From: a virus
Taxonomy: Duplodnaviria > Caudoviricetes
Virus record (IMG/VR): IMGVR_UViG_3300032254_000010
Coordinates: 1 to 45,935 of that record
Direction: 5' to 3' (one strand)
DNA length: 45,935 bases
How positions within the stretch are numbered: position 1 is the stretch's first letter; every line of letters starts with the position of its first letter. A program made the position numbers and the translations under genes. This document shows, one piece after another, positions 5,476 through 22,386 of the stretch. The notes under the pieces are model-generated. The model did no database searches. It was given only the letters and a program-made list of their open reading frames with translations, and was not told where the DNA came from.

Positions 5476-5668
5476 ATTTCATCGAGTTCGATCTGATCTC
5501 TTTACTTGCCCAGCCTTCACCTTTAAAGTGAAAGGCACAGGAAGATTTATAATGTCGTTTAATTGAAGTATTTCCACACTTAGTACATAAAGTAGGGAAA
5601 GCCTCCTTCATACTTTGTTGATGTTGGAACTCATCATTACAATGAGTACAGATAAAATCATATGTCAT
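5474..5668 (-). CDS. FmdB-family zinc-ribbon protein
   Basis: YDFICTHC...CTKCG and FKGEGW motifs. Confidence 0.8.
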   Translation of the reverse strand: MTYDFICTHCNDEFQHQQSMKEAFPTLCTKCGNTSIKRHYKSSCAFHFKGEGWASKEIRSNSMK

Positions 5669-5698
5669 ACTTAATACATTTCATAGGTATATATGTAT

Positions 5699-5731
5699 AT
5701 ATTACCAAAAAAAGACGAAAATGTCTAATCA
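5699..5731 (-). promoter_or_regulatory. Sigma70-type promoter for the leftward (structural) arm; copy 1 of a repeated motif
   Basis: On the - strand: TGAT-TAGACA-N17-TAATAT with extended TGG before the -10. The same motif occurs at 8370-8402 and 22409-22441. Confidence 0.6.
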
Positions 5732-5824
5732 GTTTTGAAAATAATTGATTTATTTTACATTATTTGGGGTTTAATCAATATTTAAGACTAGATCAGATGA
5801 ATATGGTTATTTATTAACCATTAT

Positions 5825-5908
5825 GGATACCATAATTTTTCTGAGAAAATTTGAGGGCTTCTGTAGTACCCTTTTAGGATACCATAATTTTTCTGAGAAA
5901 ATTTGAGG
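5825..5908. repeat. Two 32-bp direct repeats with an internal palindrome
   Basis: GGATACCATAATTTTTCTGAGAAAATTTGAGG at 5825-5856 and 5877-5908; core TTTTCT-G-AGAAAA is palindromic. Confidence 0.9.
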
Positions 5909-6062
5909 TTGCAATGCATTACTATATAGAATACCCGACCCCCCTTGTACCCGTACCCTTTGTCTGGGTATATGTATTTAATCTGACCTAGCAAGAATCA
6001 CGCCAAATAAGCCTTAGTTCTTGTGTTCAGATTATGGTGTATTATCCAAGTGTCTCATAAAA

Positions 6063-6135
6063 GACACAAGATGTAGTATGTTGTGGTATAAATGACACAA
6101 GATGTGGTGTGTTGTGGTGTATTGTGGTGTGTTGG
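6063..6135. repeat. Short tandem GACACAAGATGT / TTGTGGTGT repeats
   Basis: GACACAAGATGT occurs twice, followed by iterated TTGTGGTRT units in the non-coding divergence region. Confidence 0.7.
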
Positions 6136-6317
6136 TGAAATAACACACACTACCCCCGAACACATCCCTAAAAGTTCTCTTTATGTTCTCTATCGTATTG
6201 ATTGTATTGATACAATAGACTACTTGTACACATATCTAAACATCAATCCTAAGCTCCTTAGAGCCGATCTGAGAGCCTTTATTCTTACCCTTGTTATGGT
6301 ATTACTTTTATCTTTAC

Positions 6318-6347
6318 GTCTCTTAGAGAGGCTCTTAGTAGGTCTGA
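6318..6347. repeat. Dispersed 30-bp repeat; inverted copy at 29632-29661
   Basis: GTCTCTTAGAGAGGCTCTTAGTAGGTCTGA matches the reverse complement of 29632-29661 at 28/30. Confidence 0.8.
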
Positions 6348-6421
6348 TGATGATCTAACTTGGCATGGTTATTGCTACCTTACATACATGCATGTACTCT
6401 CTGAATTAAATTATTTAATTG

Positions 6422-6452
6422 TTGACATCTGTACCCGAAGTATGCCTATAAT
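6422..6452 (+). promoter_or_regulatory. Candidate early sigma70 promoter
   Basis: Perfect TTGACA and TATAAT upstream of the first + strand gene, but the spacer is 19 bp. Confidence 0.45.
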
Positions 6453-6491
6453 CTCATATCGGCCATGAGGTCATTTACTGAGGATGTTAAT

Positions 6492-6611
6492 ATGTTTGAG
6501 TACATCAACGGCGAGTACTACTGTAGTGAATACAACTTCACAGCTATTCAGGAAACAACTTACGAAGATATTATTTTAATGATAGAAAGAGGAGAGATTG
6601 ACAATGAGTAA
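6492..6611 (+). CDS. Small early hypothetical protein (39 aa)
   Basis: RBS GAGGA; MFEYINGEYYCSEYNF...GEIDNE*; overlaps the start of the next gene. Confidence 0.55.
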   Translation: MFEYINGEYYCSEYNFTAIQETTYEDIILMIERGEIDNE

Positions 6612-7371
6612 TACAACTATAGAAGCGTTTTACTTTTCAAATAAAGATAAAAAATTAAGATATAGAGATAATAGGATTATTCGTACAGGATTGACTCATA
6701 AAGTTAAGGGGGAAATAGAGCTATGTCATCGTGGTTTACACGCTTCTATAAATCCACTAGATGCCTTGCAGTATGCGCCTGATTCATATCTTTGGATAGT
6801 TGAATTATCCGGTGATATTATACAAGGTCAAGACAAAGTATGTGCATCTGAGAGGAAATACATACATGGATTCGACGCGACTAAATTATTAAAGGAGTTC
6901 GCTAAGAAACAAGCACTAATTAATATAGATAAATTTAAGAATTACTGTTCTGATGATCAATACAATAGTATTCTTAAATACTTACATAGTGATTACAAGG
7001 ATATTAATAAGTCTGCTATTGAGTCTGCTATTAAGTCTGCTGCTCGGTCTGCTCGGTCTGCTACTCAGTCTGCTGCTTGGTCTGCTCAGTCTGCTGCTTG
7101 GTCTGCTCGGTCTGCTGCTGCTAAGTACGCTGCTGAGTCTGCTTGGTCTGCTGCTGAGTCTGCTCGGTCTGCTGCTGAGTCTGCTGCTTGGTCTGCTCAG
7201 TCTACTGCTCAGTCTGCTGCTCGGTATGCTACTCAGTCTGCTGCTGAGTCTGCTGCTGAGTCTGCTGCTGAGTCTGCTGCTGAGTATGCTGCTTGGTCTA
7301 ATGCTCAATATGCTGCTAAGTCTGCTGCTAACAAAATGCTAACTGATATGATAAATGAGGTGATAAAATGA
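6604..7371 (+). CDS. Phage protein with CxxGLHAS N-terminal domain and Ser-Ala-Ala repeat tail (paralog 1)
   Basis: ELCHRGLHAS...DALQYA...VELSG...DKVCASERKY followed by SAA(E/W/R) repeats; paralogous to 9954..10718. Confidence 0.8.
   Translation: MSNTTIEAFYFSNKDKKLRYRDNRIIRTGLTHKVKGEIELCHRGLHASINPLDALQYAPDSYLWIVELSGDIIQGQDKVCASERKYIHGFDATKLLKEFAKKQALINIDKFKNYCSDDQYNSILKYLHSDYKDINKSAIESAIKSAARSARSATQSAAWSAQSAAWSARSAAAKYAAESAWSAAESARSAAESAAWSAQSTAQSAARYATQSAAESAAESAAESAAEYAAWSNAQYAAKSAANKMLTDMINEVIK
7012..7329 (+). repeat. Coding tandem repeat (TCTGCT[GCT]NNG)n
   Basis: 9/12-nt units directly visible. Confidence 0.9.
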
Positions 7372-8000
7372 AAACGCATGACGCACATGTAACATCGTAC
7401 AAATTACACAGAGTACAACAAGAGGCTAAGCGGGTTAGTAGAACTCTGAAAGGTTTAGAATCTACCGAGGCAAGAGCTAGAGCACATCGCCTGTCCTTTG
7501 CTGAGATAGGTATTAGCTGTACTAATTTAGTCTTCGACAAGGACTTAGCTGAATCTAACCTTAGTCCTGAGATTGTCGAGATTCTAAAAGATGATCCAGA
7601 GAAGGATACAGGGATTATGCATACCCGTGTTCCGACTAATGCGCAGACGAGTACAATAGCTGAATCTGATCGAGGCGGGATGAAGTCTTTAGTCACTGAT
7701 TTAGATGATGATACACAGACAGAGTTCTATACGGCCTTTGACCTGAATGAACTAGGCCATATACAAAGTGCATCGATGAGGGTTATTGATAGACTCCCTT
7801 TATTTATCCATAACTTAAAAAGGTGGTCTAATGGATTCGACCTTGTGAAATTTAAACGTGCTGAGGGTATCAGAAAGAAAGAATTTATTAATGCAGCAAT
7901 CCCAGCTAAGAACCTTACTAAGCGAGGTAAGATAACTACTAGACGTGCTCCAGTACCTAGACGTAAGCCAAGGACTAGAACTAATGCCCTTATGTCATAA
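7368..8000 (+). CDS. Hypothetical protein with basic C-terminus
   Basis: 210-aa ORF, RBS GAGGTG, ATGA overlap with the previous gene, followed by a terminator. Confidence 0.7.
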   Translation: MKTHDAHVTSYKLHRVQQEAKRVSRTLKGLESTEARARAHRLSFAEIGISCTNLVFDKDLAESNLSPEIVEILKDDPEKDTGIMHTRVPTNAQTSTIAESDRGGMKSLVTDLDDDTQTEFYTAFDLNELGHIQSASMRVIDRLPLFIHNLKRWSNGFDLVKFKRAEGIRKKEFINAAIPAKNLTKRGKITTRRAPVPRRKPRTRTNALMS

Positions 8001-8019
8001 GACCTGATAAAGGTCTGAT

Positions 8020-8044
8020 AGCCCCCAATTCGGGGGCTTTTTTT
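8020..8044 (+). terminator. Rho-independent terminator
   Basis: AGCCCCC-AATTC-GGGGGCT followed by a T-run. Confidence 0.85.
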
Positions 8045-8369
8045 ATGTCTGATTGTTTTAGGCTCTTAGAGAGGATCTAAGAGGTTTATACAAGTACCTA
8101 TATAATACACCCTTACCTGTGTTAAACCTTTCACAAAGACTCTGCTTGTCTCTCATTACATGTAAAATGATGATAGTACTTATAATAACACCATGTAATA
8201 CACACCTGTAACCACCAGACGATATTACGCTAAGTACCTGATATATCTATAAAATCTAGTATTCATGACATACTGAACACATACAAGTATACAGTTTATG
8301 TTTTATCTAGTTAATCTTATATTTATTTATTAAATATTAAGTACTAAGTATTAACATAGGTATACATAG

Positions 8370-8402
8370 ATGTTACCAAAAAAAGACAGTTTTGTCTAAT
8401 CA
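8370..8402 (-). promoter_or_regulatory. Copy 2 of the repeated promoter motif, pointing leftward into an ORF-free region
   Basis: On the - strand: TGAT-TAGACA-N17-TAACAT with TGG extension. Confidence 0.5.
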
Positions 8403-8415
8403 TGGAGAAAATAAA

Positions 8416-8928
8416 ATGAAATTTGAACAATACAAAATACAAGATCTTAAAAAGGCTGTAACTAGCTTGATTAAGAAACATAAGACAATTGCATCAGCTA
8501 CTCAAGAGATGTTGATGGGTGTGGCTTATGAACTCGAAGTTAATAAAGATGTGCTGGAACTAAATCGATTCGTTGTACAGTTAAGCGATATTGATACAGA
8601 TGGAAAAGTGCAATTATCCTCAACAGCGCGTGCTGTAGGTGTGTACATGCAAGCAATGTTACCTGTTAAGTGGTCTAAGAAAGATCAAGGGTTTAATGTA
8701 ACAGATGAAATCCTAGATTTTGACTTTGATGCAGCATGTGAAGCTATGGAAGCTACACGCTGGGATAAATACGGTGTGAAGGGTGCTGATGCTGAGTTCG
8801 ATGCTGACAATCTTCTCAAAAAAGCTATGGGAATGATCAATACAATTATTAAGCACCATAATGACGGCGACTTACAAGATGATGATCCAGCCTTCGTTGT
8901 AGCACGTCGAATTAAGAAAGTATTTTAA
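8416..8928 (+). CDS. Hypothetical early protein
   Basis: ATG at 8416 with RBS GGAG; long open frame. Confidence 0.75.
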   Translation: MKFEQYKIQDLKKAVTSLIKKHKTIASATQEMLMGVAYELEVNKDVLELNRFVVQLSDIDTDGKVQLSSTARAVGVYMQAMLPVKWSKKDQGFNVTDEILDFDFDAACEAMEATRWDKYGVKGADAEFDADNLLKKAMGMINTIIKHHNDGDLQDDDPAFVVARRIKKVF

Positions 8929-9953: not shown

Positions 9954-10718
9954 ATGAAAACTATAAAAGCGTACTGGTTTCAACCAGAAAATGGTAAACT
10001 AGGTTATGATGATAACCGTACTGTAAAAGAAGGATTAACTCATAAGGTTGAAGGTGATCTTGCATTATGCTCTCATGGATTACATGCATCTATCAGACCC
10101 TTTGATGCTTTACAGTACACTAGAAGCTCCGTCTTATGGTTGGTCGAGCTTTCCGGTAATATTATTTATGGAGAAGATAAGGTATGTGCATCCGAGAGGA
10201 AATACATTCAAAAAAGAGATATATCAGAGACTTTAAGAGAATTCTCTAGGAACCAAGCATTGATTGGAATACATAAAATAAAACCTTACTGTACCGAAGA
10301 GGATTATAAGACCGTTATTAATTATTTGAAAACAGGCGACCCCTGTTTAAGGTCTGCTGCTCGGTCTGCTGCTCGGTCTGCTCGGTCTGCTGCTTGGTCT
10401 GCTGCTCGGTCTGCTGCTGAGTCTGCTGCTGAGTCTGCTGAGTCTGCTGCTGAGTCTGCTGAGTCTGCTGCTTGGTCTGCTGAGTCTGCTGCTTGGTCTG
10501 CTGCTTGGTCTGCTGAGTCTGCTGCTTGGTCTGCTCTGTCTGCTGCTGAGTCTGCTGCTGAGTCTGCTGAGTCTGCTGCTTGGTCTGCTGCTGAGTCTGC
10601 TTGGTCTGCTGCTTGGTCTGCTCTGTCTGCTGCTCGGTCTGCTGCTCGGTCTGCTGCTGAGTCTGCTGCTGATGAATCATTTACCTTGATGATTCAAAAA
10701 GAATTCTCTATACAGTAA
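9954..10718 (+). CDS. Phage protein with CxxGLHAS domain and SAA repeat tail (paralog 2)
   Basis: ALCSHGLHAS...DALQY...VELSG...DKVCASERKY; RBS GAGG. Confidence 0.8.
   Translation: MKTIKAYWFQPENGKLGYDDNRTVKEGLTHKVEGDLALCSHGLHASIRPFDALQYTRSSVLWLVELSGNIIYGEDKVCASERKYIQKRDISETLREFSRNQALIGIHKIKPYCTEEDYKTVINYLKTGDPCLRSAARSAARSARSAAWSAARSAAESAAESAESAAESAESAAWSAESAAWSAAWSAESAAWSALSAAESAAESAESAAWSAAESAWSAAWSALSAARSAARSAAESAADESFTLMIQKEFSIQ
10353..10670 (+). repeat. Coding tandem repeat (TCTGCT[GCT]NNG)n
   Basis: Same unit as 7012-7329, more homogeneous. Confidence 0.9.
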
Positions 10719-12582: not shown

Positions 12583-13498
12583 TATACTTAGTTATAAAAG
12601 ACCTGCTGGGTCTAAAACAGAAAAAGAAGCTATTAAAAAATTCATCGATGTCTTACCTAATGTACATATAGACGGATTCGGCAATAGAATTGTAAGAGTC
12701 GGTACAGACAACACAACAATGTTCTCTTGTCATACTGATACAGTTCATAGAACTGAAGGTATGCAACAGCCTCTATATGATCCTAATAAAGGAGAGATAT
12801 TTGTACAACATGATGAATGCTTAGGTGCAGACGATGGCGCTGGGATTGTCATTATGATTGCATTGATTAAGGCTAATATCAACGGATTGTACGTCTTCCA
12901 TCGTGAAGAAGAAATAGGTGGTAATGGGTCTAATTATATCCAGCAACATACACCTGAACTCGTCGATGGTATACTACGATGTATAGCATTCGATAGACGT
13001 GGAACTGAATCAATTATAACACATCAAGGATTTGAACGATGCTGCTCTGACAAGTTTTGTGAAGAGTTCGCACAAGAATTAATGAAATCAGGTAAATGGT
13101 TTTTCCCAGATAATACTGGGTCTTTCACCGATTCAGCTAATTATACACATCTTATACCGGAGTGTACTAATTTATCATGCGGATATGACTCTGAACACAC
13201 TTCATCTGAAACATTAGATGTCGTCTTTGTTCAAGAGTTAATAAATGCATTAGTTAATGTAGATTTTGATAACTTGATAACTGAAAGAGATCCTTGTATT
13301 GAGGATTATGATCTAGATGTTGATGGGTACAATTATGACTCTTATCTCCCAGCTAATGTTCCTTATGAGTACCCAGATATTACTAGACTCAGTAACGCAG
13401 ATATAAGTGATATGGTTTACTATGATCCAGATGACGCTATAGATCTTATCCGTGAGTACAGGAATTTTCTATTGTCTGGAGAAAGAGATGCTGGTTAA
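12536..13498 (+). CDS. M20/M28-family zinc peptidase-like protein
   Basis: Metal-ligand motifs SCHTDTVH, LGADDGAG, REEEIGG, AFDRRG, FTD, NLSCGYDSEHT. Confidence 0.85.
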   Translation: MNSIQNVRKKVKKSLNILSYKRPAGSKTEKEAIKKFIDVLPNVHIDGFGNRIVRVGTDNTTMFSCHTDTVHRTEGMQQPLYDPNKGEIFVQHDECLGADDGAGIVIMIALIKANINGLYVFHREEEIGGNGSNYIQQHTPELVDGILRCIAFDRRGTESIITHQGFERCCSDKFCEEFAQELMKSGKWFFPDNTGSFTDSANYTHLIPECTNLSCGYDSEHTSSETLDVVFVQELINALVNVDFDNLITERDPCIEDYDLDVDGYNYDSYLPANVPYEYPDITRLSNADISDMVYYDPDDAIDLIREYRNFLLSGERDAG

Positions 13499-14015
13499 CA
13501 CGTATAAATTAGTAGTACTGATGATGATAGTATCTTCCTTATTTGGATGCTCTGTAAACAAGTACGGAGTTCTGGGTGAAATTAACACAGAAATAAATAA
13601 GATACCATACAAATCAGACATATTAAATACTGGTAAGATTGATACTTGGCTAACACCTGACGAATTTTATAAGAAAAACGCTGGAGATTGTGAAGACTTT
13701 GCTATTGCTAAGTATTTTGAGTTAAGGAAGAACGGGTACATTATTAATGAAATGCTAATAACTTATGCTATGATTGATATTAATAATGAGGCACTAGCTC
13801 ACATGGTAGTAATTGTTAAGGGACTAGTCCTTGATAATGTAACGAATGATATTGTACCTCTTAAAGATAGAAAAGATTTAACCTTATCTTATCAATTTAA
13901 TGAGGATGACCTGATTATTGAAGGAAGAAGATTTCCTAGTACTAATATTTTAAAGTGGAGAAACTTAATAGAGAGGGTTAGAAAAGAGCGGCGCTCTCAG
14001 CGTCAAATTGAATAA
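13488..14015 (+). CDS. Bacterial transglutaminase-like cysteine protease (BTLCP / LapG-like), possible lipoprotein
   Basis: WLTPDEF...GDCEDFAIAKY, AHMVV and VLDN give the Cys-His-Asp triad; hydrophobic N-terminus ending in LFGC. Confidence 0.85.
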   Translation: MLVNTYKLVVLMMIVSSLFGCSVNKYGVLGEINTEINKIPYKSDILNTGKIDTWLTPDEFYKKNAGDCEDFAIAKYFELRKNGYIINEMLITYAMIDINNEALAHMVVIVKGLVLDNVTNDIVPLKDRKDLTLSYQFNEDDLIIEGRRFPSTNILKWRNLIERVRKERRSQRQIE

Positions 14016-14025
14016 ATTGTTATAT
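13987..14025 (+). mobile_element. Partial attC-like site A (right half only)
   Basis: AGCG-GCGCT-CTC-AGCGT-CAAATTGAATAAATT-GTTATAT; the left TAAC arm is absent. Confidence 0.5.
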
Positions 14026-14043
14026 TTTTATGAGGAGCAAAAA

Positions 14044-14238
14044 ATGAAATATTCAACAAGAGTTTTTATTTTAATTTTTGGATGGTTGGTGCTGTTAGTT
14101 GGTTTGATTTTAAACGGCATAATATTTCCTGTTTATTGGGTAATTAGGTACGGCTGGGAAAACACACCTTTCTTCCATAACGTAAGGGCGGGCGCAATTG
14201 GATCTTGGAAGATAATTTCTGATGCTTGGGAAATATAA
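14044..14238 (+). CDS. Cassette 1: small membrane protein
   Basis: RBS GAGGAG, ATG at 14044, hydrophobic segment; stop lies inside ATATAAC. Confidence 0.7.
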   Translation: MKYSTRVFILIFGWLVLLVGLILNGIIFPVYWVIRYGWENTPFFHNVRAGAIGSWKIISDAWEI

Positions 14239-14368
14239 CCCATAAATTGAGAGGCGCACGATGAATAAAGAATGCAAATGTAGTTTACGGGGTCAATTAG
14301 TTGGTGATGGGTGCGGAGTTTGTAACCCTGAATATGTTAGTGCGTCCGGCTCGAATGATTTGTTATGT
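14233..14368 (+). mobile_element. attC-like site B (136 bp, long loop)
   Basis: ATATAAC-CCATAAATTGAG-AGGCGCAC ... GTGCGTC-CGG-CTCGAATGATTT-GTTATGT, an imperfect inverted repeat. Confidence 0.65.
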
Positions 14369-14569
14369 TGCCCGCGCTGCGGTGGTGATGGCGGGTATAT
14401 TTTAAAAAAAGTAATGTACTACGAGCATTTGTTTGACTGGGAAGGGGTAGCCGTTTCTTCTGAAAGAACACAAAGCACAAGCGGAAAGAGAAAGCACTGT
14501 GCTGACTGCTACAAAGATATAACAGCCTTTGTGGACAAGATGGTATGCGAAGGCAGAATAGAAATATAA
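14261..14569 (+). CDS. Cassette 2: Cys-rich (CxC/CxxC) protein starting inside the attC loop
   Basis: CKC, CGVC, CPRC, CADC; stop inside ATATAAC. Confidence 0.7.
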   Translation: MNKECKCSLRGQLVGDGCGVCNPEYVSASGSNDLLCCPRCGGDGGYILKKVMYYEHLFDWEGVAVSSERTQSTSGKRKHCADCYKDITAFVDKMVCEGRIEI

Positions 14570-14619
14570 CGCAAAGCTAAGCGGCTCGTAGAGTCCGATT
14601 CTTGAGCGTTTTGTTATAT
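14564..14619 (+). mobile_element. attC-like site C (56 bp)
   Basis: ATATAAC-GCAAA-GCTAAG-CGG-CTC-GTA-GAG-T-CCG-ATT-CTTGAGC-GTTTT-GTTATAT: R''/R' pair, L''/L' pair with an extra base, unpaired spacers. Confidence 0.8.
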
Positions 14620-14640
14620 TTTACTGGGAGGATATTTGGT

Positions 14641-14808
14641 ATGAACAAGATAGTTATTATAGATAACTGTGGTATGTGCCCCCATTTTGATGATGAGTAT
14701 TATGACTACAACTCAGAATGTGAAGCGCTTAACCGGAAGATACTTGACAGGGTAATTCCTGATGACTGCCCTTTGGCTACTACTAAAGAGCCTGTTGCAG
14801 AAATATAA
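14641..14808 (+). CDS. Cassette 3: small Cys-rich protein (CxxCPxF...C...CPL)
   Basis: RBS GGGAGG, ATG at 14641; stop inside ATATAAC. Confidence 0.7.
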   Translation: MNKIVIIDNCGMCPHFDDEYYDYNSECEALNRKILDRVIPDDCPLATTKEPVAEI

Positions 14809-14862
14809 CAGCCATCATAACCAGCCGAGCGCAGCGAGGTCTGCGTTATGTAACTGTTATGA
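14803..14862 (+). mobile_element. attC-like site D (60 bp)
   Basis: ATATAAC-AG-CCAT-CATAAC-CAG-CC...GG-T-CTG-C-GTTATG-TAA-CT-GTTATGA. Confidence 0.75.
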
Positions 14863-14880
14863 AATGATTTTAAAAGTTTA

Positions 14881-15017
14881 TGGGTAGAAGCATGTAGTCA
14901 TGCAGCTATACAGCTTGGCGCATCAGCACCCCGCATGTGGGGTGATAACGCTGGACTATTCGCGGTAGTCGAAATCTGATCGCGATAGCAAGGATTAACG
15001 CCCTTGCCTACCCGCCA
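14881..15017 (+). ncRNA. Putative tRNA-like structured RNA ending in CCA
   Basis: 5' GGGTAG pairs with 3' CTACCC-G-CCA. GCAAGG/CCTTGC arm abuts the closing stem. Internal helices: GCATG/CATGC, AGCT/AGCT, ATCAG/CTGAT, CACCCC/GGGGTG, GACTA/TAGTC. GC-rich intergenic island. Confidence 0.55.
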
Positions 15018-15037
15018 TATTAACGAGGGAGAGATAC

Positions 15038-15325
15038 ATGCCTTACACAACCGACCCAGTTCGAGATGCAGAGATATTTTATCTGGATAGAGAGCGTCAA
15101 CAAGAAAAATATGACGAAGAGTTCGATCAAAGGTACGAAGGAAACCTTTACGATTTCGCCATGTTCCAATCTTTCCTTCACGACCTAGACACATCAAAAC
15201 CTGAAATTAAATTATTCTTTGATCAAATGAATGGTGATCAAATAGACAAATGTTATGCTTATGATCATATTATATTATTGTACGAAGAATACGTCAAAGA
15301 AATCACGGAGTTATTAAATGAATGA
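15038..15325 (+). CDS. Hypothetical acidic protein
   Basis: RBS GAGGGAG; 95 aa; TTDPVRDAE motif. Confidence 0.7.
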   Translation: MPYTTDPVRDAEIFYLDRERQQEKYDEEFDQRYEGNLYDFAMFQSFLHDLDTSKPEIKLFFDQMNGDQIDKCYAYDHIILLYEEYVKEITELLNE

Positions 15326-17911: not shown

Positions 17912-18511
17912 ATGAAATATGAATTAACAACAAACAGCATTTTTAGGTTAGGCCGAACTTTATACCAAATAAAAGCATTAGTGTCTTTTGGTGATATAGA
18001 GAAAGGTGATCTAGGTGGGTATATAGAGAAAGAGGGCAACTTAAATCAAGATGGTGATGCTTGGGTTTCTGGTAATGCTTGGGTTTCTGGTAATGCTCTG
18101 GTTTATGGTGATGCTTGGGTTTCTGGTAATGCTCTGGTTTATGGTAATGCTCTGGTTTATGGTAATGCTCGGGTTTATGGTAATGCTCGGGTTTCTGGTA
18201 ATGCTCTGGTTTCTGGTGATGCTTGGGTTTCTGGTGATGCTTGGGTTTCTGGTAATGCTCTGGTTTATGGTGATGCTTGGGTTTCTGGTAATGCTAGTGA
18301 AACGCCGATCCATATCTCAGGACTTCCATATATTATCACTATTACAGACACACAAATAAGAATAGGCTGTCAGATTCACGCGATAAATGAATGGGAAATG
18401 TTCACTGATTTAGAGATAGAAGCAATGGATGGAAAAGACGCGATCAGTTTCTGGATAGAAAATAAAGAAGTTATTATGTCTTTGGCTAATAACCATAAGG
18501 TGGAGAAATAA
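17912..18511 (+). CDS. Phage protein with hexapeptide G(N/D)AxV(S/Y) repeats (beta-helix-like)
   Basis: KYELT...LYQIKAL..FGD..KGDLGGYIEKE N-terminus, repeat core, IRIGCQIH...W C-terminus. Confidence 0.8.
   Translation: MKYELTTNSIFRLGRTLYQIKALVSFGDIEKGDLGGYIEKEGNLNQDGDAWVSGNAWVSGNALVYGDAWVSGNALVYGNALVYGNARVYGNARVSGNALVSGDAWVSGDAWVSGNALVYGDAWVSGNASETPIHISGLPYIITITDTQIRIGCQIHAINEWEMFTDLEIEAMDGKDAISFWIENKEVIMSLANNHKVEK
18053..18295 (+). repeat. 18-nt coding tandem repeat
   Basis: GGT(A/G)ATGCTNNGGTTT(C/A)T units. Confidence 0.9.
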
Positions 18512-19589: not shown

Positions 19590-19741
19590 AATACGAAATA
19601 AGAAATCTAATTAATGTTACATACCAAGTTTATGAGTACACAGAAGATTCTGAAGAAGATGAAGGTATTTGCGTTTATCAAGGCAGCCTCTCAGAATGTG
19701 AAGCTTACTTGAACTTTCTTTATAAGGGTACTTTACAATGA
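19586..19741 (+). CDS. Small hypothetical protein (51 aa)
   Basis: ATGA overlaps at both ends; MKYEIRN...VYQGSLSECEAYL. Confidence 0.6.
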   Translation: MKYEIRNLINVTYQVYEYTEDSEEDEGICVYQGSLSECEAYLNFLYKGTLQ

Positions 19742-20229
19742 AACTGGTATTCGACATAGAGGCTAATGGCTTTTATGAAGAAGCAGATACGATATGGTGT
19801 ATAGTCGCTAAAGACATAGATACAGGGTACATGTACATATTCGATGACTCTTCTCAGTTCAAGAGCGTAAGACATGGTATTTCTGTGATTGAAGACGCAG
19901 ATGAATTGATCGGTAACAATATAATTGATTATGATCTCCGTCTAATTAAAAAGATATTTCCTGATTTTAAACCTAAGGGTTTAATTACAGACACGATGAT
20001 ACTATCTCAGATACTTCAACCAGATAGGGCTGGAGGACACTCACTAGAGGCAGCAGGAGAACGTATGGGACGTTCTAAACCTGAACATGAGGATTGGTCT
20101 CAGTTCAGTCCAGAAATGCTTCATAGGTGCTCTGAGGACGTTGAGATAAATGAACTGTTTTACAAAGAATTACTAAACGAAGCTTATGAAGATGTACAAG
20201 GTATTCCTTACGAGAGGATCTTTTTATGA
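19738..20229 (+). CDS. DNA polymerase A fragment 1: 3'-5' exonuclease domain
   Basis: ExoI FDIEANG, ExoII GNNIIDYDL, DTMILS, HSLEA, ExoIII RCSEDVE. Confidence 0.9.
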   Translation: MKLVFDIEANGFYEEADTIWCIVAKDIDTGYMYIFDDSSQFKSVRHGISVIEDADELIGNNIIDYDLRLIKKIFPDFKPKGLITDTMILSQILQPDRAGGHSLEAAGERMGRSKPEHEDWSQFSPEMLHRCSEDVEINELFYKELLNEAYEDVQGIPYERIFL

Positions 20230-20672
20230 GACCTAGTAAGATGAATGGGCTAAAGAACATATACGGGGCTAGAATGAAACATATTATATACAATGCAATC
20301 AGAACTCCAGATGGGACTATTTTAGAGTCTCACTCAACTCATGATTACAAAACATATCAAGACTTAAATGGAAAAGAATACATGATTGATGGCGGTAAAT
20401 CTTATGTACGTTCTTCAGTCAACGGTGACGAAGAGTACTTGACAGTCTATGGTGATGAACCTCATGAGAAAATACGAGAAGTCTTTACATGGGGAACTTA
20501 CGGTAAATACAGTGATCAACCTCTTAAGTTTATTGCTCTTAAGACTATTAAAGATAATCACCTTCCCGCTATATTAGAGACTCAAATACACCTTGATCCA
20601 CATATCCGTAAAATATTTGAAGATGAAATTAATTACCGCATGACAGAAAAAAAGGTGACTAAGGATAGCTAA
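20226..20672 (+). CDS. Hypothetical phage protein inserted between polymerase fragments
   Basis: NAIRTPDGTILES...HDY...IDGG.SY.R, WGTYG; unrelated to polymerase. Confidence 0.7.
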   Translation: MRPSKMNGLKNIYGARMKHIIYNAIRTPDGTILESHSTHDYKTYQDLNGKEYMIDGGKSYVRSSVNGDEEYLTVYGDEPHEKIREVFTWGTYGKYSDQPLKFIALKTIKDNHLPAILETQIHLDPHIRKIFEDEINYRMTEKKVTKDS

Positions 20673-20769
20673 CGTATTCTTTACCTCAGATCTACATTTT
20701 GGACATGATAATTTAGATGAATTAAGGGGTGAGATCAATGATAAAAAGATCTTTACAAACAGCGTTTGA
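20665..20769 (+). pseudogene. N-terminal remnant of a calcineurin-like metallophosphoesterase
   Basis: Frame reads (ATA)IANVFFTSDLHFGHDNLDELRGEINDKKIFTNSV*; contains the DxHxGH motif but has no ATG start. Confidence 0.6.
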
Positions 20770-21472
20770 GAATGAATCAATCGTAAGGAGGATTTTAAGT
20801 GAACAGACACAAGCAGGGGTCAGATTCGATGTCAAAAGAGCCAATAGGTATTTGGCATATATCGAGCAAAAAAAATCACAATTATACAAGCAAATTCGTC
20901 CTATGTTACAGCTTGAGGTCATCAAGCCTTACAGTGCACCTGTTAATAAACCATTCCTCAAAAATGGCTCGTATTCGAGTACGTCACAGAAATGGTACGG
21001 AGATTCTGTTGACATTGTCGGAGGCCCGTTTACAAGAGTTGAATTCAAAGAACCAGATATCGGAAGTCGTCAAAAGCTACAGTCTCAACTCCTCAGATTG
21101 GGGTGGAAACCACGACACTTTACTGAAAAAGGCAATCCAAAACTTACCGTTAATTCTCAACCGTGTGAATCACTAAGTGAGATTGATTCTCAGGTCGGGT
21201 CAGATATAGCGTTGTGGTATGTACTAGCACACAGAGAGTCTCAAATCAACGGTTGGCTGAGTCATGTCAGACCTAATGAGAGGATTCCTCAGGAGGCTTT
21301 TACAATAGGTACACCTACCTATAGGATGAGACATAAGATCCTTGTAAACGTCCCTAAGGCTGCTAAACACGTAGTATTTGGTAAGCAGATGAGATCATTG
21401 TTTACTGTACCGAGGGCTGCTGAAGGCATGAAACTATATATAGAATGGAAGGAGAAAGATAATGCCTTATAA
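20738..21472 (+). CDS. DNA polymerase A fragment 2: thumb / N-terminal polymerase region
   Basis: EQTQAGVRFD, GSRQK...GWKPRHFTEKGNPK, HRESQINGWL, GTPTYRMRH...NVPK...GKQMRSLF. Confidence 0.9.
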   Translation: MIKRSLQTAFENESIVRRILSEQTQAGVRFDVKRANRYLAYIEQKKSQLYKQIRPMLQLEVIKPYSAPVNKPFLKNGSYSSTSQKWYGDSVDIVGGPFTRVEFKEPDIGSRQKLQSQLLRLGWKPRHFTEKGNPKLTVNSQPCESLSEIDSQVGSDIALWYVLAHRESQINGWLSHVRPNERIPQEAFTIGTPTYRMRHKILVNVPKAAKHVVFGKQMRSLFTVPRAAEGMKLYIEWKEKDNAL

Positions 21473-21713
21473 GAGGACACCTAAAGTAGCAGGTGAGACT
21501 TATTTTGCTGGGATGGATTGTACATGCATGGCGTATAATGAAAGTGAATGCTGCTGTGATGTTGATTGGACAGACGAAAAAGTGTATGTTCTACGAGAGA
21601 GAATAGGTAAACTTGAAACAGCGCTTAAAGAGATTATTCAGATTAGCGATTATACTAATGCAGGTGATAATTGTAAACTACTGGCTATAGAGGCTCTTGA
21701 AAATGAAACCTAA
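21462..21713 (+). CDS. Cys-rich hypothetical protein inserted between polymerase fragments
   Basis: RBS AAGGAG; DCTCMAYNESECCCDVDW followed by a coiled-coil. Confidence 0.7.
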   Translation: MPYKRTPKVAGETYFAGMDCTCMAYNESECCCDVDWTDEKVYVLRERIGKLETALKEIIQISDYTNAGDNCKLLAIEALENET

Positions 21714-22386
21714 AGTTATGGTTGGCCACGATGCCTCTGGACTAGAACTCAGAATGTTAGCTCATTATTTGAATGATCCTAAATTCACTAAGGCTGTAAC
21801 AGAAGGAAAGGAGAGTGAGGGAACAGATGTCCACACAATCAATCAAGAAATGGCAGGATTACCCACAAGAGATCATGCAAAGACGTTTATCTATGCGTTC
21901 AATTATGGAGCAGGGGATGAAAAAATTGGAAGCATTATTGGAGGATCTCGTAAAGAAGGGAGGAGAATTAAATCTAGATTCCTTAGAGCTAATCCGAAAC
22001 TGGCAGACCTTATCAAGCGTGTACAGCGTGCTGGAGAAAGAGGATGGTTACTAGGCTTAGACGGACGGAGAATTCATCTAAGACGTGATTTCCAGGGAAA
22101 GGTACAAGTACATAAGGCGCTTAATACTCTCTTACAAGCAGCTGGAGCTGTTGTAATGAAGCATTCTATTGTTTTATTAGATCAATATATAAAGGAAGAA
22201 GGTCTCAGTTCCATTAAACTAATTGATATGCACGATGAGGCACAATTCGAATGTCTTCCAGAAGAAGCAGAGAGACACGGAGAACTTGCAGTACAAAGTA
22301 TCAGAGATGCTGGTACATTACTAGAACTTAATTGCCCGTTAGACGCTGAATACAAGATTGGTGCTAATTGGGCTCAGACGCATTAA
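21703..22386 (+). CDS. DNA polymerase A fragment 3: catalytic palm/fingers (Tyr762 type)
   Basis: Motif A DASGLELR, DVHT, motif B RDHAKTFIYAFNYG, ALNTLLQ, motif C MHDE, IGANWAQTH. Confidence 0.93.
   Translation: MKPKVMVGHDASGLELRMLAHYLNDPKFTKAVTEGKESEGTDVHTINQEMAGLPTRDHAKTFIYAFNYGAGDEKIGSIIGGSRKEGRRIKSRFLRANPKLADLIKRVQRAGERGWLLGLDGRRIHLRRDFQGKVQVHKALNTLLQAAGAVVMKHSIVLLDQYIKEEGLSSIKLIDMHDEAQFECLPEEAERHGELAVQSIRDAGTLLELNCPLDAEYKIGANWAQTH

Follow-up and report, generated by a model that had tools for sequence, protein, structure and literature searches.

The window that we analyzed, meaning the whole 45,935-nt stretch of DNA, is a complete virus record and is bounded by direct terminal repeats. 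Matches to PHROGs families include terminase, capsid, a T7-like primase-helicase, a split polymerase, and a sigma factor, and among the 65 ORFs scanned against PHROGs there was neither an integrase family nor a repressor. A search of the complete genome with PF00589 also gave no match, and its positive control was detected in 14 of 14 genomes. With both scans empty, the claim of a first-pass annotation that the genome has no tyrosine recombinase held. Judged by sequence, the gene content and the absence of an integrase and a repressor fit a lytic podophage. The family A DNA polymerase (19738-22386) is split over three ORFs, one for the exonuclease and one for each of two polymerase parts, and small ORFs separate them. 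Genes with long internal peptide repeats (Ala/Ser/Trp-rich or Gly-Asn-Ala-rich) lie at 9954-10718, 6598-7371, and 17912-18511, in the early and middle regions. G+C and promoter scans of the window showed nothing above chance.

Genes and hairpins at the locus

The locus begins with a + strand gene (13452..14015) for a transglutaminase-like cysteine protease of the BTLCP/LapG-like type (PF06035, E = 2e-11; LapG model, E = 1e-22, which is under that model's cut-off). The final codons of this gene, stop included, fall within what is left of site A (13980..14025). The protein has a lipoprotein-like N terminus, a tblastn search of 50,697 cultured phage records found no match to it, and, by analogy with the function of LapG, it might cut a host adhesin. 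Three small + strand genes follow, together with sites B (14233..14368), C (14564..14619), and D (14803..14862). ORF1 (14044..14238) encodes 64 amino acids with a hydrophobic N-terminal half; its homolog search returned the window's own protein only, and it matched no PHROG family. ORF2 (14261..14569) encodes 102 amino acids, and ORF3 (14641..14808) encodes a Cys-containing protein of 55 amino acids whose single outside homolog, P0003, is 81% identical and likewise ends in EI.

All four elements, A to D, are present where the first-pass annotation had placed them, except that the homology of A begins at 13980 and not at 13987. The annotation was mistaken in setting ORF2 between B and C, since the ORF2 start falls inside B. 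It had correctly seen GAAATATAAC at the ends of all three ORFs (starts at 14230, 14561, and 14800). This string occurs three times in the 45,935 bases, against a mean of 0.15 in shuffled sequences, none of which (0/100) held three or more copies.

Identification of attC sites

We took 20 stretches beside bacterial intI genes as the source of control attC sites. A side-neutral script listed 92 candidate bacterial sites; when these were oriented by intI, the extra base was on the left arm in 87. From 45 hand-picked sites, mostly short, with nested and doubtful rows left out, we built a covariance model of our own, distinct from that of IntegronFinder. This model found 117 sites in 19 bacterial loci at 23 to 64 bits, all on the strand expected from intI, with the 45 training sites among them. 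A second model was built from the 117 sites; the E values of both models are rough.

Full-length matches in the window fell on the minus strand only. Site C scored 41.8 bits (E = 2e-8) with both models, and site B scored 25.5 bits with the first and 30.4 bits with the second. Site D reached 13 bits with both (E = 0.4 to 0.6), which is below significance, and site A had no match, so the covariance-model check proposed for the locus succeeded for B and C and failed for D and A. The rest of the genome stayed at or below 9 bits, apart from a 14-bit partial match within D on the + strand. The text of Qi et al. 2023 (PMC9892861) sets the CALIN threshold at a minimum of two attC sites within 3 kb at 20 bits; B and C lie 195 nt apart, and each exceeds 20 bits with our own model. 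The idea of an integrase-less attC cluster in a lytic phage was thus borne out by the scores of B and C and by the empty recombinase scans. The window holds no complete integron, having neither intI nor attI; to the right of D, we found no attI-like site (score 22, equaled in 151 of 300 shuffles).

The anatomy of attC, with R'' and R' boxes carrying AAC and GTT, paired L boxes, and spacers of 5 to 6 nt, was recognized in B and C by the model and in D by eye and by folding. Site C is an intact 56-nt attC, and its L pair has the extra base noted earlier, on the + arm opposite AAC. Site B is a 136-nt attC, and D is an atypical attC-like hairpin of 60 nt. Site A, also in the minus-strand orientation, is truncated, keeping R'', L'', and part of the loop and lacking L' and R', with its cut site. 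The proposed folding check also gave a split result: as DNA, on both strands, C and D folded better than shuffled sequences (z from -2.75 to -3.73), and neither B (z +0.2 and +1.2) nor A (z -0.05) did so. The R-box pairing probability on the + strand was 0.58 for B, 0.40 for C, and 0.94 for D, with a bacterial median of 0.84; for B on the minus strand it was 0.18.

As had been claimed, the cores around cassettes 1 and 3 are complementary at 7 of 7 positions, in a run of 9 nt, and those flanking cassette 2 are complementary at 6 of 7. Complementary cores (7/7) were found for 77 of 99 bacterial cassettes, versus 15 of 117 within one site. This complementarity, read earlier as a sign of circularization, is real but symmetric and is expected in either orientation.

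The hairpins might instead be RNA signals of an early transcript, either RNase III sites or terminators, that merely resemble attC. RNase III sites occur between T7 early genes, and the present hairpins likewise separate early genes, in a genome that encodes a T7-like primase-helicase; C and D also fold well as RNA (z -2.9 and -3.9). RNA processing, however, does not predict complementary cores across each ORF, and it leaves unexplained both the strand-specific matches to the attC model and the homology to attC sites adjoining an intI gene that is described below. Rfam returned no family at the array locus. We regard RNA signals alone as a most improbable account, and a secondary RNA role for the hairpins is possible.

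Orientation of the cassettes

According to Nivina et al. (PMC5027507), the bottom strand of attC has its extra-helical bases across from AAC and is cut in the AAC of R'. With the + strand as the bottom strand, this asymmetry is present in B and C and weakly in D. We also applied a strand classifier on arm positions. In a leave-one-locus-out test on bacterial sites, it was correct for 115 of 115, a figure somewhat flattered by controls that came from a top-strand model. For the + strand it scored B at -15.9, C at -28.1, and D at -3.3; the score of 3.3 for the minus strand of D is below the control minimum of 4.6. The loop 9-mer of D occurs in 11 bacterial top strands versus 0 bottom strands among the 115 sites. 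A contrary result came from the bulge-side script, which called B "left" on the + strand, its 6/5 spacers being mirrored, and had no entry for C; the strand assignment therefore rests on the model and the classifier.

Because the model, the classifier, and the extra G opposite AAC make the minus strand the attC top strand, the + strand serves as the bottom strand, which makes the genes antisense to their attC sites. The longest ORF was sense to attC in 93 of 99 bacterial cassettes versus 0 of 3 in the window; antisense genes thus occupy 6 of 99 control cassettes and all three window cassettes. The canonical layout, with an ORF on the top strand upstream of its own attC, was not found in the window. 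We are highly confident that B and C are attC sites and that their polarity is flipped.

This polarity revises several details of the first-pass annotation. The ORF stops lie in R' boxes and not in R''-like boxes. The predicted cuts are at 14238|14239 in B, 14569|14570 in C, and 14808|14809 in D, in place of G|TT, and the expected excision join is 14569/14809, in place of 14613/14856. Slippage at the 10-nt repeat could also produce such a join. The recombinogenic strand, by model and classifier, is the + strand of the window, where the annotation would have folded the other. Since a cassette here is a hairpin with the gene to its right, B is able to hold the ORF2 start. Cassette 2 (14239-14569) would comprise ORF2 and site B, and cassette 3 (14570-14808) would comprise ORF3 and site C; cassette 1 (13980-14238) is predicted not to be excisable at its site A end. 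A possible remnant of a fourth cassette (14864..14949, + strand) holds a 7-codon ORF after D and a partner core matching at 6 of 7 positions (14943-14949), a weak case, as another 6/7 core match lies at 15194. The stretch at 14865-15040 is noncoding and richer in G+C, with several small hairpins (RNA fold z -1.6) and no Rfam match.

ORF2 takes its ribosome-binding site, its start, and its first 36 codons from the loop and one arm of site B, and its chimeric product consists of a Cys-rich head, an in-frame attC arm, and a zinc-finger-like body. Among 1.8 billion representatives, ORF2 had 84 matches, 18 with the head motif and 60 with the body motif, and the query alone had both. Protein comparison showed that in P0008 the ORF2 head and most of the arm peptide are joined to another body and that in P0002 the ORF2 body carries another head. 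In 8 of the 60 ORF2-type bodies, LL(C/S) stands directly before the first CPxC, and these are the residues encoded by the B core. On these comparisons, ORF2 is a natural fusion through an attC arm. Because the head/body switch is at R'' and not at the normal cut, ordinary IntI excision fails to explain the fusion, which might have arisen by top-strand recombination or by cassette creation. In the synthetic constructs described in PMC7439510, an attC arm within coding sequence is likewise read as a peptide linker between protein parts; that linker was engineered, whereas the one in ORF2 is natural, and recombination of B is only predicted.

The first-pass annotation had read the array as ordinary cassettes, each a gene followed by its own attC, cut by a host IntI at G|TT on the + strand. 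The stops in TAAC boxes and the complementary cores agree with that layout, and P0002 switches its head near the GTT box, as a cut there would give. Top-strand recombination does exist at low rates (PMC5027507). However, the model and the classifier place B and C on the minus strand, with no + strand match; the attI and intI of the L169 integron, described next, fix the same flipped polarity; and the similarity of A to L169 continues rightwards into a ribosome-binding site. We consider the ordinary layout highly improbable.

A flipped integron in a temperate phage

A loosened form of the site A pattern found four viral loci, among which L169 was the sole real match. L169 carries a complete, phage-borne integron (G204; 5565-8556) with six attC sites on the minus strand. 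Its IntI scored 423 bits with TIGR02249 (cut-off, 265) and has the catalytic motifs. To the right of the attC array lie an attI-like site, judged by eye from its position and core match, and intI. Thus, L169 has an intI over the family cut-off, an adjacent attI-like site, and an attC array, and the polarity fixed by attI and intI is the same as that in the window. The attC sites, genes, and intI are all on the repressor/antirepressor strand of the phage, and the integron is upstream of a DNA methyltransferase gene, a phage integrase gene, and tRNA-Arg. The repressor, antirepressor, phage integrase, and tRNA-Arg indicate that L169 is a temperate phage. Each of the six + strand ORFs of the integron has a ribosome-binding-like motif and ends at the next core or shortly before it; the longest-ORF test, which is crude, called four of the six cassettes antisense.

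The intact A-type attC of L169 (L169:5955-6039; 85 nt, 33.6 bits) and site A have 5 differences in 51 nt. The similarity runs rightwards to 14049, into the ORF1 start region and its ribosome-binding site, and ends leftwards at 13980, so that site A is without a cut site. The lowest-energy structure of the L169 A-type site is not one hairpin, and its R-box pairing is 0.04. Sites B, C, and D are only 32 to 61% similar to L169 sites, and L169 and the window phage have no cassette gene or other gene in common. The L169 IntI matched bacterial IntI-like proteins at 30 to 61% across unrelated taxa, with no host indicated. The host IntI invoked earlier as the supplier is not the sole candidate, since L169 carries its own IntI together with an intact site A. 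Another viral IntI, at L177 (48%), gave no attC match.

Microbial-mat assemblies and relatives

The window locus is present in five microbial-mat runs, three of which are possibly its source. When we compared the window region with the contigs of four runs (X1, X2, X4, and X5), further contigs were also picked up that share only A, C, or D. A 3.5-kb contig of run X1 has five other letters over 13980-14030, and its loose end is L169:6045-6074 in 30 of 30 letters; this contig ends short of intI. A 172-nt contig of run X2 also has five other letters. The letters and loose end of the X1 contig place an L169-form attC and the next cassette in the same run as the window phage. No joint skipping a window-phage cassette was found in the contigs of the four runs, which drop rare variants. 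A break in an X2 contig at 14234-14263 could mark a variant at B and is unreadable. Among mat contigs with near-copies of A, C, or D alone, several right-hand loose ends resemble a ribosome-binding site with a start codon, so that flipped arrays may be widespread in the mat. Other contigs with A-, C-, and D-like sites measure 16 to 39 kb, and in one of 39 kb an A-like and a D-like site are separated by 8.9 kb.

No close relative of the window phage was found; the best matches were 38 to 51% for the peptidase (15 loci) and 57% for the primase (1 locus). The covariance model found attC in none of these 16 loci or in L019, and none of the 16 encodes the protease or ORF1 to ORF3. Comparison of the array with cultured phages by blastn gave two chance matches. 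The patterns of sites C and D had 0 matches in viral contigs and two in genomes, which are not attC. The exact site A pattern had 10 genome matches, none of them attC-like, and the loosened pattern had 108 genome loci, none of which passed the flank filter. One metagenome scan returned the window's own sequence only.

Comparison with published arrays

Integrase-less attC arrays in lytic phages are already published. Qi et al. 2023 (PMC9892861) reported 17 CALINs among 10,705 phage genomes, including those of the virulent phages PH101, TJE1, and P12002L, and found that IntI1 recombined five of six sites from three virulent phages. Like the window, these three have at least two attC sites between small genes and no intI in a lytic phage. 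Aligned with the bottom strand of PH101 attC2, a site that IntI1 recombined in the same study, the + strand of site C is identical in 42 of 60 columns (70%); the best of 117 bacterial sites reached 65%. Site D and PH101 attC1 are identical at 40 of 61 positions. PH101 (L039 5920-7988) also resembles the window in having the three annotated genes between its four sites on the attC bottom strand; two of its attC sites and their downstream flanks are near-duplicates. TJE1, unlike the window, has the bacterial orientation. The Shewanella prophage M16-3 of that study has a complete integron with a phage-borne intI and cassette array; in our comparison its attC sites and genes are on the same strand, unlike L169 and the window. 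The text of the paper describes the PH101 cassettes as all facing one way and makes no mention of antisense genes, though the figures or annotation of the paper may show the flip. In the literature covered, which was largely outside subscription journals and in part excerpts, and which included PMC8946536, PMC5737381, PMC11023631, PMC11551772, and PMC5371416, no arrays with all genes antisense to attC are described.

The window differs from PH101-type CALINs in having one coding site, one truncated site, and an identified candidate donor integron. With bacterial integrons it shares the attC anatomy, own-core complementarity, and site lengths (56 to 136 nt, beside the 57 to 141 nt given in PMC5371416). 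Bacterial integrons have intI, attI, and Pc, from which their promoterless cassettes are read, whereas the window has none of these and its hairpin precedes the gene. What is added here, by sequence comparison, is a direct link between a lytic orphan array and a temperate-phage integron from the same habitat.

Proposed origin and mechanism

Since site A is a truncated copy of an L169-type attC that occurs in the same mat run, the array likely came from a temperate-phage integron. We think it probable that the locus is a short, integrase-less run of flipped attC sites that came from flipped temperate-phage integrons in the same mat, and an origin in integrons like that of L169 is likewise likely on the sequence comparisons above. 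Against this reading stand the score of D below significance, the broken site A, the lack of attI to the right of D, the absence of cassette-skipping joints, the absence of a cassette gene common to L169, the low similarity of B, C, and D to the L169 sites, the antisense call for only four of six L169 cassettes, and the lack of a close relative in which cassette turnover could be seen.

In the mechanism that we propose, a cassette would be a gene with its upstream hairpin, which could supply start signals. Early transcription of the phage would read through the array, so that neither Pc nor attI would be needed. With an IntI provided in trans by the host or by a resident prophage, cleavage would fall at AA|C on the folded + strand. 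Cassette 2 would be excised by B x C and cassette 3 by C x D, and cassette 1 would be fixed because site A no longer has a cut site. According to published work (bioRxiv 10.1101/2022.09.11.507474), small CALINs can arise by insertion at sites other than attI, and such an insertion could supply the right-hand end of the array.

The array may also be a frozen relic. It would then have the same origin, having entered once from a flipped integron, through illegitimate or short-homology recombination, and would differ from the proposed mechanism only in present activity: IntI would not act now, and the hairpins would serve as spacers and start signals. A relic would be consistent with a site A that breaks off within its loop, where it joins the protease gene, with a 7-codon remnant and no attI after D, with the weakness of D, and with the lack of variant joints in the contigs of the four runs. 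It would fit less well with an intact site C whose score lies inside the bacterial range, with the R-box pairing kept on the + strand in B, C, and D, and with the perfect core matches of cassettes 1 and 3. We put the relic somewhat short of an even chance and continued recombination of the array today at a little over one chance in three, and we treat the two as about equally likely.

The locus touches on where the small early genes of lytic phages come from and where integrase-less attC clusters come from. It ties an orphan array of a lytic phage to a candidate source, an integron of a temperate phage that is flipped in the same way and has the same attC. A bacterial Pc would leave flipped cassettes silent, whereas the early operon of a phage could read them, and the cassette pools of phages and bacteria would thereby be kept apart. 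More speculatively, and on balance doubtfully, phages may run a flipped-cassette economy of their own, in which temperate phages would carry IntI and attI, lytic phages of the same community would carry integrase-less arrays and trade early genes with them when infecting lysogens, and attC loops holding gene starts would allow heads and bodies to recombine. In cassette 5 of L169 (6995-7215), an unrelated gene is enclosed by the 9- to 10-nt flanks that window cassettes 1 and 3 also have, and these shared flanks are perhaps a signature of cassette making.
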